From positions 32,001-96,000 of IMG/VR virus record IMGVR_UViG_3300049182_000044: DNA of 64,000 nucleotides; one strand, written 5' to 3'. Of this stretch, positions 2,742 through 51,819 are shown one piece after another (the stretch's first letter is position 1; every line of letters begins with the position of its first letter). The stretch comes from a virus (lineage: Duplodnaviria > Caudoviricetes). Made by a program: the position numbers and the translations under genes. The notes under the pieces are model-generated. The model was given only the letters and a program-made list of their open reading frames with translations. It ran no database searches and was not told the DNA's origin.

Positions 2742-4142
2742 ATGAAGGCGAAATCTGCATTAGACACGATGGAACGCATTCGCAAGGCTCGTAGCCTGAA
2801 CGACGTTGTATCCATCGTCCGCGACATTGCAAAGAACGTCGTTGCACAGCAAAAGAGTGTGACGAAAATGGGTGTATCCCTATCCGCCGGCAAGAAAATC
2901 AAAGACGAGACACTTGACATTGACCACACTGGCAAGAAGCCGGTTCGTGTGCGAGTCGGATCGAAGAAAAAGAAGGGTTCTGCACCTTTGAGTAGCGGAG
3001 CCAAGCTGGAGGGTTTCAAAGCTCCTCCTGCCGGACAAGTCAAAGAACACATGGAAGTCGTGCACCAGTTGCATGACAACGTAAAGCAACTGGAAGCCGC
3101 TCGTGCGCTGATCGAGCAGGCGTTTTCCCGTTCTGCGAAGAAGGATGTTGCCTTGAAGGGTATTGATGCCCTGATTAAGGACAGCACCAAGATCGTGAAC
3201 AACGCTTACGACATGATGGAAGAAATCTCGAAAAAGCACATTCCTGAAGAACTCGAAGAGATGAATCAATCTCTGTTCGACTTCTTGCTCGAGGCTGTTC
3301 CACAAGACAAGTACGCCAACATCATCCAGGGCACCTACGTGACTCTGCGTGAAACGGATTCCTCAGTTGCTCCTGCTGGCAAAGGTCCGAGTAAGCTGAA
3401 GATGAATACGGACTTCGTGTTCTCGTGCTACAACGTTCTCGAAAATCTGGAAGCCAGCGATGGCTACTTCTTCCCGAAATACGTACTGGTGCTGACCGGC
3501 GTGGTCGACCACCGTACCAAGGAAGGAAAGCCACATAGCGTCCTGCGTTACTTCCTGAATGCTTTGCCGGATTTCCGCGAGCCAGGAAAATACGATCTGG
3601 GCGCTGAAGTGCGGGACGAAGCGGACATGATGCATCGTGCGTCCCTCCTGCTTGCTCACAATTCCGTAGTCGTTCCGTTTGAACGTAAACCGATGCCACT
3701 CACCGATTCCGATGTGAAGACCAAAGGCTTCCACGGCATCCCGAACGTAGCTCGCGCTTATGTAGATGACGATCAACTGTGCGTCGTGGTCAAGAAGGGC
3801 AAGGCCAATACGGCTAACATTCAGAAGATTCAGACTGAAGTGATGTCTCTTCTGACTGCTGTCATCCGCACACCGAAGAAGGTCAAAGAAGCGGGGCCGA
3901 CGGGTAAGGGTGGTACTGTATTCAAATCCGCAGGTCGCGGCTCGGTCATTCTGCCGGCGCGTCCGGTGAAGGAAGGCGACAACACGGTTCTCAAGTTCTC
4001 GCTAATCCCTAACATCCCGGAAACCGATGCACAGCAGAAGTACACGGTCAATGTGGCTAAGCTGAAAGATCTGCAGGAGATGCTGGAACTGCCTGATGAC
4101 GTTATGTCCGAAGTCAAGAAGGCCTTGAAGCATCACATCTAA
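2742..4142 (+). CDS. Hypothetical protein, probable virion protein
   Basis: 466 aa ORF with phage-typical codons; KMGVSLSA motif at aa 42-49. Confidence 0.75.
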   Translation: MKAKSALDTMERIRKARSLNDVVSIVRDIAKNVVAQQKSVTKMGVSLSAGKKIKDETLDIDHTGKKPVRVRVGSKKKKGSAPLSSGAKLEGFKAPPAGQVKEHMEVVHQLHDNVKQLEAARALIEQAFSRSAKKDVALKGIDALIKDSTKIVNNAYDMMEEISKKHIPEELEEMNQSLFDFLLEAVPQDKYANIIQGTYVTLRETDSSVAPAGKGPSKLKMNTDFVFSCYNVLENLEASDGYFFPKYVLVLTGVVDHRTKEGKPHSVLRYFLNALPDFREPGKYDLGAEVRDEADMMHRASLLLAHNSVVVPFERKPMPLTDSDVKTKGFHGIPNVARAYVDDDQLCVVVKKGKANTANIQKIQTEVMSLLTAVIRTPKKVKEAGPTGKGGTVFKSAGRGSVILPARPVKEGDNTVLKFSLIPNIPETDAQQKYTVNVAKLKDLQEMLELPDDVMSEVKKALKHHI

Positions 4143-46816: not shown

Positions 46817-47105
46817 GGACACCTAAAACGGGAATTACCCATCCCATTACAATTTGCCGAAACACCCAAGACACAATGTCTTATTAGAGTGAAGCAGTCA
46901 ACATGCACGACGCCATAAGCAAAGCTTTCACCTAGCTTTTGGGCTTGCAGGACGAGTGAGGTACTCCTTTGAAATAGCTATTGATTATAGCCGTAAGCCG
47001 GGGCCACACATACGCCAGTCAACGATGCCGTCTTCGCGGGATGGGTCGGGGGAGTCGATTCCTGAGTGGGCGGTTTATGGATGTAATCAACAAGAAAAGA
47101 CAATC

Positions 47106-47747: not shown

Positions 47748-47823
47748 GGGGCGTTAACTCAGTTGGTAGAGTAGCGGACTCTTAATCCGTTTGTCGTAAG
47801 TTCGATCCTTACACGCCCTACCA
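47748..47823 (+). tRNA. tRNA-Lys(CTT)
   Basis: 76-nt cloverleaf, gcgga-ct-CTT-aa-tccgt, TTCGATC loop, encoded CCA. Confidence 0.95.
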
Positions 47824-47881
47824 AAGTTTCCATAGTAGTGCAGATGCGCGAAAGCGAGTTCTTACTTCTGCATTACTCACC

Positions 47882-47957
47882 GGGTCGTTAGCTCAGTCGG
47901 TAGAGCAGCGGACTTTTAATCCGTTGGTCGCGTGTTCGAGTCACGCACGGCCTACCA
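47882..47957 (+). tRNA. tRNA-Lys(TTT)
   Basis: 76-nt cloverleaf, gcgga-ct-TTT-aa-tccgt, encoded CCA. Confidence 0.95.
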
Positions 47958-47979
47958 AGTTTGTCGTAGTAAAGAGTTG

Positions 47980-48101
47980 TAACTGCCATGTGGGTGGGTA
48001 CCTGCATGTTGTCGTAAGAATGGCCAAAAAGCCGGACCTCAATTTGTGCGAGTCGAAAGGCTCTCACCAGTGTAGACAGTCCTTACAGGGGATCGCAGTT
48101 A
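47980..48101 (+). ncRNA. Structured inter-tRNA element
   Basis: taactgc/gcagtta closing stem; gagtc-GAAA-ggctc hairpin at 48050-48063. Confidence 0.35.
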
Positions 48102-48111
48102 GCTGTTACGT

Positions 48112-48187
48112 GGGGCGTTAGCTCAGTTGGGAGAGCAGCGAACTTTTAATCCGTTGGTCGCTGGTTCAAACCCAGCACGCCCTACCA
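48112..48187 (+). tRNA. tRNA-Lys(TTT), variant with A30.C40 anticodon-stem mismatch
   Basis: 76-nt cloverleaf, gcgaa-ct-TTT-aa-tccgt, TTCAAAC loop, encoded CCA. Confidence 0.9.
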
Positions 48188-48410: not shown

Positions 48411-48539
48411 GCGGGTATCGTCGAAGGTATGGCTATCGTAGTAAAGGCGTACAGTCATGTGCGTCTACATGGGGCAACTTAACAGTTGCAGCTACGACGT
48501 TCCCATGTTTCGTGAGTTCAAGTCTCACTACCCGCACCA
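48411..48539 (+). ncRNA. tRNA-like RNA, Leu-type acceptor, 129 nt, non-canonical anticodon/variable region
   Basis: gcgggta/tacccgc-A-CCA; gtgag-ttcaagt-ctcac T arm; gtc/ggc D arm; extra stems acatggg/cccatgt and gcaact/agttgc. Confidence 0.8.
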
Positions 48540-48905: not shown

Positions 48906-48994
48906 ACGTTCTGCGAGAGATCAATACACAGTGAGTTCGGAGGTGCGGCGGGAACCATGCCTCGGAGCGGACAACAGTCTGTGCAGCAGAACGT
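48906..48994 (+). ncRNA. Unknown RNA motif, copy 1
   Basis: acgttctgc/gcagaacgt closing stem around GAGAG..TACACAGTGAGTTCGG..CGGACAACAGTCTGTGCAGC. Confidence 0.7.
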
Positions 48995-49013: not shown

Positions 49014-49106
49014 GTAGGCAGTTAGACGCTGGCGCGCGATGATGGTAACTGGCAACGGTTACTTGGGCCATGCGAGACAAAACGATCACAGACCGTTACT
49101 GCTTAC
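49014..49106 (+). ncRNA. Putative structured RNA domain
   Basis: gtaggcagt/actgcttac 9-bp closing stem; gtaac/gttac inner hairpin. Confidence 0.45.
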
Positions 49107-49118
49107 TTCAATATGTAT

Positions 49119-49324
49119 TCAGTGTGTTTATGACGCACCACATTTGCGCGCACTTGCTAGAGACAGGTGTGTTCGCCCAGGTCGAAAGGCCCTCCTGCTT
49201 AACTAGCGGGCGGTTGTATAGGCTGCGAGGGCGTTTAGCAAGCAGTACGGCGTTCTGTTAGCCTGTAAGGGTGTGGGCCGGGTAGTGAAATAGCTACGAA
49301 CGTGGGGCGCCATAAATACATTGA
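49119..49324 (+). ncRNA. Putative structured ncRNA (~206 nt)
   Basis: 18-bp closing stem tcagtgtgtttatgacgc / gcgccataaatacattga (2 G.U, 1 mismatch). Confidence 0.6.
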
Positions 49325-49333
49325 GTTTATTCT

Positions 49334-49506
49334 GGCGGGGTATGCATATTGGAGTAGCTGCGATTGACCGAACCGTGGAGTCCTAGGGTCGGTGAGGTCG
49401 TCGTGGTCGAGTTGGGAACAAGCACTTTGGGAGGTCGGGTAACGTGCTCGATTGAACATTGTGACTCCGACTCGGCGTGAAAGTTCGATCCTTTCCCCTG
49501 CTGCCA
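49334..49506 (+). ncRNA. tRNA-like RNA, 173 nt, G73 discriminator, large insertion in place of the anticodon/variable arms
   Basis: ggcgggg/ccctgct-G-CCA; gaaag-ttcgatc-ctttc T arm; tgca/tgcg D stem with GG in loop. Confidence 0.8.
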
Positions 49507-49587
49507 ACGATTTCGGGACTCGTAGTTTATTCTTCGTCGAGCCGCGTTCAGCATGGGTGACCAGGTCACGTAAGTGCTGATGTTAGT

Positions 49588-49675
49588 CGGGGCGAGGGAG
49601 TAAGAACGTGTTGACTGTGATGCGCTATGCTAAATGGTCAATAAGGTGCAGGTTGAAACCCTGTCGGCCCGACCA
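49588..49675 (+). ncRNA. tRNA-like RNA, Pro-type acceptor (C1-G72, A73), 88 nt, 21-nt anticodon loop
   Basis: cggggcg/cggcccg-A-CCA; gcagg-ttgaaac-cctgt T arm; ttgac/gtcaa stem; no D stem. Confidence 0.7.
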
Positions 49676-49690
49676 ATTTCAAGGAATACC

Positions 49691-50083
49691 ATGAGTAACG
49701 CCACACCCCGATATGCAACGGTAGACGCGAACAAGATGATTATCACAGATGGTAATCATGGCGGTTATCGCACTGGCTTCTGCGCGGTCTGCGAAGCGAG
49801 CGGTTGGTTGGATGTACCGAAAGGTGCGTCGAACGGGATAGTTCATAAACCAGACTGCGTAGTTGGCATTGCACTGAGCGCACTTCAAGAGATGAAAGTG
49901 CTCGACCTGGTGAAGATGTCAAATTTGACCTACTCACTGCCATCCAACAATTTCGCCAATCAGCCGTTTATAATGGCTGATGCATTGAAACGCAGCGATC
50001 TGGAAATGGTCATGAGCTGCCGTGACTTTGACCGCATTGAAGCAGACCAAGAACATACTGTGCTTATCTGGTACAAGCAGTAA
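49691..50083 (+). CDS. Hypothetical protein
   Basis: Start MSNATP after AAGGA; CAVC...H..DC motif; 130 aa. Confidence 0.65.
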   Translation: MSNATPRYATVDANKMIITDGNHGGYRTGFCAVCEASGWLDVPKGASNGIVHKPDCVVGIALSALQEMKVLDLVKMSNLTYSLPSNNFANQPFIMADALKRSDLEMVMSCRDFDRIEADQEHTVLIWYKQ

Positions 50084-50184: not shown

Positions 50185-50337
50185 TAAATTAGTCTGTGCT
50201 CCAGCGAAGATTAACTGGAACGAGAACGTTGGAACAACTCAGCTTTCCTAGGATCGGTGAGCCGACGTCCAGACCGGTAGTCCTTAATCCCCATACTCTC
50301 GTAGGGCGAGCCGGATGTTGGAGTACAGACCAATTTA
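50185..50337 (+). ncRNA. Putative structured ncRNA (~153 nt)
   Basis: 21-bp closing stem taaattagtctgtgctccagc / gttggagtacagaccaattta; inner gattaa/ttaatc and tcgg/ccga. Confidence 0.65.
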
Positions 50338-50689: not shown

Positions 50690-51181
50690 ATGGGAGCAGC
50701 AGTAATTCAGCTGAAGTGCGCACGTTGCAAAGCGAAGTTTGAAAAGAAACTAGCTGAGTACACGTATCAATTGCGCAAGGCAGGCGTTTTAGACAAGCCA
50801 TTCTTTTGCAGCAGGGCATGCGGTCAAGCGTATTCAGGCGAGACGTTTCAAGCGTTCACCGATATTCGCGCAATCGCTAAAAGCCTCCGCAATCGAGAGT
50901 GGCCTTGATATGAGAAGTTAGACCGTTATCTAAAATCAACGGGGCTTACGTACCGATTCGAGTTCTTCTTCAAGAAGCACCGATTCGTGTACGACTTGGC
51001 GATAAAGGAACTGCGGTTGATATTCGAGTTCGATGAAGCGTATCACTACGATGAAACCGTCAGGCTTGTAGACAGAGCGAAGGACAAGCTCGCGAAGTCG
51101 AAAGGCTACACTGTGATTCGTGTGCCTTGTTCCAACGGTGCGGTTCTGTCACCGAAACTGATAAAGAAGCATTTGAAGTAG
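50690..51181 (+). pseudogene. Zn-finger + DUF559/Vsr-like endonuclease interrupted by one in-frame TGA (50906-50908)
   Basis: CARC..CSRAC..NREWP*YEKLDRYL...YRFEF...VYDLAI...IFEFDEAYH...KDKLAKSKGYTVIRV in one frame. Confidence 0.7.
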
Positions 51182-51698: not shown

Positions 51699-51819
51699 CC
51701 TCCAAGGTCAGAGAGCACTACACAGTGAGTTCGGTCTAAACTTTAACCATTTAGTCACCGAGAGACGATTTCCGTTATAGCAATCTGGATCGGACAACAG
51801 CCTGTGCAGCCAAAGGAGG
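51699..51819 (+). ncRNA. Unknown RNA motif, copy 2
   Basis: cctcc/ggagg closing stem around GAGAG..TACACAGTGAGTTCGG..CGGACAACAGCCTGTGCAGC. Confidence 0.7.

Follow-up and report, generated by a model that had tools for sequence, protein, structure and literature searches.

To our knowledge, the anticodon-less, tRNA-shaped RNAs of phage tRNA clusters, such as species 1 and 2 of bacteriophage T4, have lacked a known function since the 1970s, and a literature search for the function of T4 species 1 found no paper. RNAs of this kind are missed by standard tRNA finders. In the tRNA-like domain of tmRNA and in the D-armless mitochondrial tRNA-Ser(AGY), an acceptor and a T arm are combined with an unpaired loop that replaces the D arm and is followed by a helix. 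T4 species 1 (rnaC, NC_000866 70908–71046) lies next to tRNA genes and carries the annotation of a small, stable RNA. It is 139 nt long and has two long arms, a canonical T loop, U73 and a CCA that is not fully encoded. The RNA is strongly conserved (726 phage records), and its homologues among the matches listed are enterobacterial T4-like phages. Additional sequence within the anticodon loop is known from the tRNA introns of Lak megaphages (10.1101/356790).

Here, we analysed an 88-nt element at positions 49588–49675 of a 64,000-nt window, the whole stretch of viral DNA under study, which appears to be a non-decoding, tRNA-shaped RNA derived from tRNA-Pro. Like T4 species 1, it lies in a phage tRNA cluster and has an acceptor and a T arm with neither D arm nor anticodon; both RNAs carry C1–G72, G2–C71, C6–G67, G7–C66, a mismatch at 5·68 and AGG after the acceptor. 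Unlike T4 species 1, it was absent from the related phages searched, whose helicases are at most 76% identical. By analogy, it resembles T4 species 1 in outline; it has a single arm and is not a member of that group by homology. The layout is also common to the tmRNA domain and mitochondrial tRNA-Ser(AGY). However, the element has no match to the G3·U70, tag frame, D-loop GG and C56 of tmRNA, nor does it have the 7-nt anticodon loop of tRNA-Ser(AGY). The permuted D/T/acceptor order of YrlA Y RNA and an Rfam match to either RNA were likewise absent.

An RNA island in a jumbo phage

The element is carried by a jumbo phage, represented by a virus record of 281,566 bp from soil. ARAGORN, Rfam and a genome scan recognised three tRNA-Lys and a two-piece tmRNA as its only translation RNAs. 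These are confined to an RNA-rich island of 4.4 kb (about 47.7–52.0 kb of the window), with ACP and YqeY genes upstream and a Dda helicase gene downstream. A scan of both strands of the 281.6 kb for a T arm, acceptor and NCCA returned six matches, every one in this island: the three tRNA-Lys and three tRNA shells, namely the 88-nt element and its neighbours at 48411–48539 and 49334–49506. Shuffled genomes gave 0.8 matches each. The 88-nt element is genuine and above chance. Its sequence recurs without a single difference in a Logan contig of the probable source sample, so it is no assembly slip, although such a contig is not independent biology. It was not called by ARAGORN or Rfam, and RF00005 gave no match at E ≤ 5. 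Searches of the genome found no second copy, no convincing donor for the D segment or the loop insert, and neither a class II synthetase core nor YbaK/ProX nor a CCA-adding enzyme; candidate sigma-70 promoters and terminators did not rise above chance.

The acceptor 5′ strand (49588–49594) is complementary at six of seven positions to the 3′ strand (49665–49675), which carries G72, the discriminator A73 and an encoded CCA; the mismatch, which the original prediction did not mention, is G5 (49592) opposite G68 (49667). The former D region (49595–49610) measures 16 nt instead of 21 and contains no stem, no U8 and no G18G19 in place. It is followed by a central stem-loop (49611–49642), a probable relic of the Pro anticodon arm, whose central pairs have a predicted probability of about 0.95. 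The T arm (49648–49664) has a Pro-type stem of five pairs, two of them G·U, and a loop with G56 (49655) and C60 (49659). Both the T loop TTGAAAC and the TTGAC/GTCAA stem are read directly in the sequence, as the original prediction had stated. That prediction also described a Pro-type RNA without a D stem and with a 21-nt anticodon loop. The first two points held, the Pro type for the entire frame of acceptor, T arm and ACCA. The 5-bp stem does enclose 21 nt, but in tRNA numbering the stem comprises 28–31/39–42 and the loop is 23 nt, the canonical length plus 16 nt.

Downstream, an AU-rich trailer with a Shine–Dalgarno-like AAGGA (49676–49690) leads to an ORF of 130 aa with no assigned function (49691–50083), which starts 15 nt past the CCA. 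Alignments with homologues begin at the first residues of this ORF; the ATG inside the RNA, which gives a 149-aa call, is therefore probably not the true start. One homologue sits in a plain operon. A protein-coding origin of the element was rejected. A hairpin is predicted directly upstream (49544–49583), and its 3′ end would be set by a cut at C1; the leader can pair with ACC. Further along the island, a CCA-ended RNA with C1–G72/A73 and a 13-bp closing stem (50194–50332; 139 nt, fold z about −4) is also followed by an RBS and an ORF, and has a TTAGT leader and an ATTT/RBS/ATG trailer in common with the element. Four of the island's CCA ends lie 15–22 nt ahead of an ORF start.

Several other features of the island were observed. 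The three tRNA-Lys (47748–48187) are the sole decoding tRNAs in 281 kb. Two of them read AAA, although 77% of the Lys codons of long ORFs are AAG, a combination that fits an anti-defence role better than codon compensation. A short conserved non-coding motif upstream of a 200-aa ORF (47060–47095; L012:1816–1850 in a related phage) indicates that the island may start ahead of the first tRNA-Lys. A two-part motif occurs twice (48916–48987 and 51710–51810), and part of it also at L005:873–895 in another relative. Directly 5′ of the tmRNA lies a zinc-ribbon and DUF559 nuclease-like gene with an in-frame stop inside (50690–51181).

Proline ancestry and lost decoding features

The frame of the element has the same base as canonical tRNA-Pro at 32 of 35 positions (7/7 at the 5′ end, as in common tRNA-Pro, and 25/28 at the 3′ end), the changes being C56G, U60C and C68G. 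A search of bacterial genomes with the acceptor/T-arm pattern gave at least 120 matches, 100% of them tRNA-Pro; these came from at least 120 genomes and comprised 69 distinct sequences with all three Pro anticodons. When the tRNAs compared had not been preselected with the pattern, Pro again came first by frame, at 29/35. One tRNA-Pro(GGG), from Rhizobium lusitanum (L038:7184–7260), has the same 5′ acceptor (7/7), 25 of the last 28 nt, C1–G72/A73/CCA, the TTGA/TCAA anticodon stem flanked by CT and GG, and a distance of 6 nt to the T stem. These matches show that the frame descends from tRNA-Pro.

C1–G72, A73 and CCA had been put forward in the original prediction as the Pro determinants. They are present in a frame that is Pro, but the pair with A73 is not diagnostic by itself, as it is also found in many tRNA-Leu and some tRNA-Ile of phages. 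A Leu ancestry was rejected: the element has its length and C1–G72 in common with Leu tRNAs of phages, yet none of its arms pairs in the Leu register, and the exact frame matches Pro only.

The central stem follows the arm pattern of the Rhizobium Pro(GGG) tRNA, TTGA-CT…GG-TCAA, which places TTGA at 28–31, C32 U33 and G37 G38 at the loop edges, and TCAA at 39–42. Its end is exactly 6 nt from the T stem, as in 89 of 99 Pro tRNAs. In a post hoc test of this register, 450 of 200,000 shuffles of the middle also passed (p about 0.002). When the middle was aligned globally with tRNAs of Pro or other type, no score was significant, and MAFFT puts the gap elsewhere. From its register, the central stem is likely a Pro anticodon arm.

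Compared with bacterial and phage tRNA-Pro, the element has no D stem, a D region that is 5 nt shorter and cannot be aligned, a 23-nt loop without G35G36, and the bases G56, G5·G68 and U48. The edit distance of the D region to Pro D regions is 8, and 227 of 1000 shuffles came equally close. Over the middle 53 nt, 421–469 of 500 shuffles scored as well against Pro middles, and no tRNA aligned better than shuffles. Gone are U8, G18G19, C48 (now U48), C56, the 5–68 pair, the D stem and G15–C48; among 530 tRNAs fetched, G56 occurs in three and G5·G68 in one. What marks a functional tRNA-Pro is retained at the acceptor end (C1–G72, A73, CCA) and absent from the anticodon loop (7 nt with G35 G36). 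Bacterial ProRS requires G35/G36 in addition to G72/A73 (PMC3973320, PMC9976931), and the substitutions G35C and G36C cut charging 14-fold and 164-fold (PMC3973320). ProRS charging is doubtful because these bases are missing. On sequence grounds, efficient charging by ProRS is unlikely and decoding very unlikely.

Decoding could in principle be restored if 16 nt left the anticodon loop, as proposed for the Lak phages. The surplus is located in exactly this loop, with C32–U33 and G37–G38 in register, and tRNA introns do exist in large phages (10.1101/356790). However, Lak exons form a normal tRNA, whereas every contiguous 16-nt excision from the present loop would leave an Ile, Asn or His anticodon and never a Pro one (no NGG). 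The product would still be without D arm, U8, G18G19 and C56, and RtcB is absent from the genome. We therefore regard an intron-containing or repairable tRNA as extremely improbable.

Relatives, neighbouring shells and possible decay

The nearest phages have Dda helicases 75–76% identical, and the 90% cluster consists of this genome's two records alone. Related loci found via the Dda helicase and a 183-aa protein (L001–L012, L225–L227) contained no orthologue of the element; several of these contigs break within the island. DNA patterns gave four chance matches in viral contigs, inside ORFs, and no orthologue was found by these patterns in viral or metagenome contigs, by blastn in phages, by protein-anchored scans of viral contigs or by tblastn. 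A motif kept in several relatives was also unmatched in some of the collections searched, which means that the clade is poorly represented there and that the blank searches carry little weight. With no orthologue, there is no covariation evidence for the element.

In a scan of IMG/VR for long Pro-frame RNAs, the matches were Leu tRNAs, Pro tRNAs with a long arm and sequences resembling att-site remnants; none was like the element. The scan brought up phage tRNA-Pro(UGG)-like genes of 89–94 nt that ARAGORN missed, with a long variable arm and an unusual D arm (L141, L156, L181, L193, L200, L210, L213), and related forms of 87–88 nt (L137, L138, L177, L180, L206, L218, L220). On the minus strand of L198, an 82-nt RNA with a Pro-type frame (match 3826–3907) seemingly has an anticodon-like hairpin (UCU) first and a D-like hairpin second.

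The absence of the element bears on whether it is an ordinary pseudo-tRNA, that is, a tRNA-Pro killed by indels or recombination, in one event or two (in the D region and by the anticodon insert), and now drifting. It is missing from all relatives, including L002, L003, L005, L006 and L010, as well as L012, whose complete syntenic island (Lys, Leu, a conserved unnamed RNA and tmRNA) has no shell. Real tRNA content differs in every relative's island, which agrees with such decay; by the same token, absence at this distance is not decisive. G5·G68 and G56 are uncompensated and the predicted T arm is weak, again as expected of a decaying gene. Against this, point decay cannot bring 53 nt to background and yet spare 32 of 35 frame positions, the central helix is still paired, and the pattern of a kept frame and a changed middle recurs in three further clade RNAs whose parents differ. 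The T stem is unlike the commonest Pro T stem of the sampled order that includes Gallionellaceae and agrees with the clade's own tRNAs, which speaks against a recent capture of the element from a host, although the host inference is weak. On balance, we consider a mere pseudo-tRNA unlikely, though it has to be taken seriously.

The slot before the conserved unnamed RNA holds a tRNA-Leu in L005, L010 and L011, and an anticodon-less shell in L002. The latter (L002:1051–1175) is 125 nt long, with an intact D arm, a long central arm, a 6-bp acceptor and C1–G72/A73. In L012, two CCA-ended hairpin RNAs (L012:1855–1927 and L012:2086–2180) lie either side of a tRNA-Leu(CAA). The unnamed RNA, possibly two RNAs, occupies 49014–49315 of the window and L002:1189–1290, L005:1298–1650, L006:9755–9900, L010:8775–8880 and L012:2188–2416. 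It has no Rfam match; in L005 and L006, a 9-bp stem and ACCA close its first part. As a conserved phage ncRNA, it is a stronger candidate than the 88-nt element.

The original prediction had counted the element as the third anticodon-defective shell within 1.3 kb and argued against independent decay. As a class this stands, with the three shells extending over 1265 nt; the members, however, have different parents, which implies separate conversions. The shell at 48411–48539 has a Leu(GAG)-derived frame (30/35 to L005), the nearest frames of the 173-nt shell at 49334–49506 are Gln/Asn (26/35), and neither middle resembles that of the 88-nt element, which alone among the three lacks both D arm and C56 and is the most eroded. 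The proposed link to the 49334 shell through a common TTGAC did not survive: alignment of the two middles was matched by 244 of 1000 shuffles, and the pentamer lies outside such a stem in that shell. Paralogy of the two was accordingly rejected, the shared pentamer being chance and the middles not homologous. Separate conversions hint at a common pressure; a function of the 88-nt element itself does not follow.

Possible processing, titration and refolding

We tentatively favour a reading, which we put at slightly under an even chance, in which the non-decoding shell is kept as a site for RNase P and 3′ trimming ahead of the 130-aa ORF. A phage tRNA-Pro gene would have had its D arm and anticodon lost or overwritten while the acceptor–T helix and ACCA were retained, leaving a small, non-decoding and probably uncharged RNA. 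Co-transcribed in the long transcript of the island, it would be cut by host RNase P 5′ of C1, which would release the upstream RNA. 3′ nucleases would trim to the CCA and expose the RBS of the ORF, whose start lies 15 nt downstream. Both the folding of the T arm and a benefit to the phage are presumed in this scheme.

Conservation along the element is uneven. Three changes in 35 frame positions compare with at least 11 events in the D region (Fisher p 5e-5), a contrast that is an upper bound as the tRNA-Pro reference was chosen on the frame. It excludes even point decay, while one wholesale replacement of the middle followed by drift would give an equal contrast. Acceptor–T minihelices with RCCA are efficient substrates of bacterial RNase P (PMC11221534), and the parts retained by the element are those that this enzyme needs, whereas the lost parts are those for decoding and the elbow. 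Other non-tRNA RNAs of the clade end in a stem plus NCCA (L006, L012 and 50194 in the window), with closing stems of 9–13 bp. Together with the L002 slot, these suggest that a tRNA-like end is what the island keeps. Against a processing mark, compensation is seen for none of the three changes in the frame, and the same island is processed in L012 without such an element. ViennaRNA gives the T arm a probability of 0.003, where canonical Pro tRNAs have a median of 0.85, which is weak evidence as one real tRNA-Lys of the island also scores 0.0.

The predicted folds raise the alternative that the element has become a new CCA-ended hairpin RNA that is not tRNA-shaped. In this rod, CCCU from the former T arm would pair with the AGGG that follows the acceptor, and AGUA would face the GAA made by G56 in a motif of loop-E/sarcin–ricin type. 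A rod is predicted as the minimum-energy fold (−31.0 kcal/mol, against −26.9 kcal/mol with a T arm, a difference of 4 kcal/mol) and as every top suboptimal fold, the 4-bp extension followed by AGUA arises in 0.16% of D-region shuffles, and G56 and C60 would be explained. Total stability is nevertheless ordinary, since 85 of 1000 D-region shuffles fold as well, and ancestral bases would make the rod more stable, not less. The motif was noticed post hoc, and there are no homologues. We consider a refolded rod very unlikely.

Acting in trans, the element could instead be a decoy, a stable acceptor-end mimic that titrates host proteins or defence toxins reading the acceptor or CCA and offers no cleavable anticodon loop. 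Tempering this idea, the elbow, which many tRNA-binding effectors read, is lost, the element is not conserved in the loci searched, and a literature search gave no paper on a non-decoding phage tRNA mimic as decoy. Pressure from defence that targets tRNAs (PMC11464382, PMC10264068, PMC11555353) fits a genome that keeps no working translation RNAs beyond three tRNA-Lys and a tmRNA. The known reader of C1:G72/A73 that is independent of the anticodon is ProXp-ala (PMC3973320). A YqeY gene lies upstream, and C1–G72 occurs in four of about nine non-decoding CCA-ended RNAs examined, a small sample viewed post hoc. A decoy role appears improbable to us, and so does its wider form, in which the lineage would make stable acceptor-end decoys that do not decode out of tRNA genes of several isotypes, the 88-nt element being a minimal one of proline type.

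A single and partly eroded copy, unconserved in the available data, proves neither a processing mark nor a decoy. If the decoy reading were true, an acceptor-reading host factor or toxin would be titrated while the three tRNA-Lys and the tmRNA sustain translation. Being small and having a traceable parent, the element shows which parts of a tRNA are kept after decoding ends, namely the acceptor, the T stem and the CCA, and not the elbow, and it is a convenient in vitro test object for a processing mark versus a decoy.
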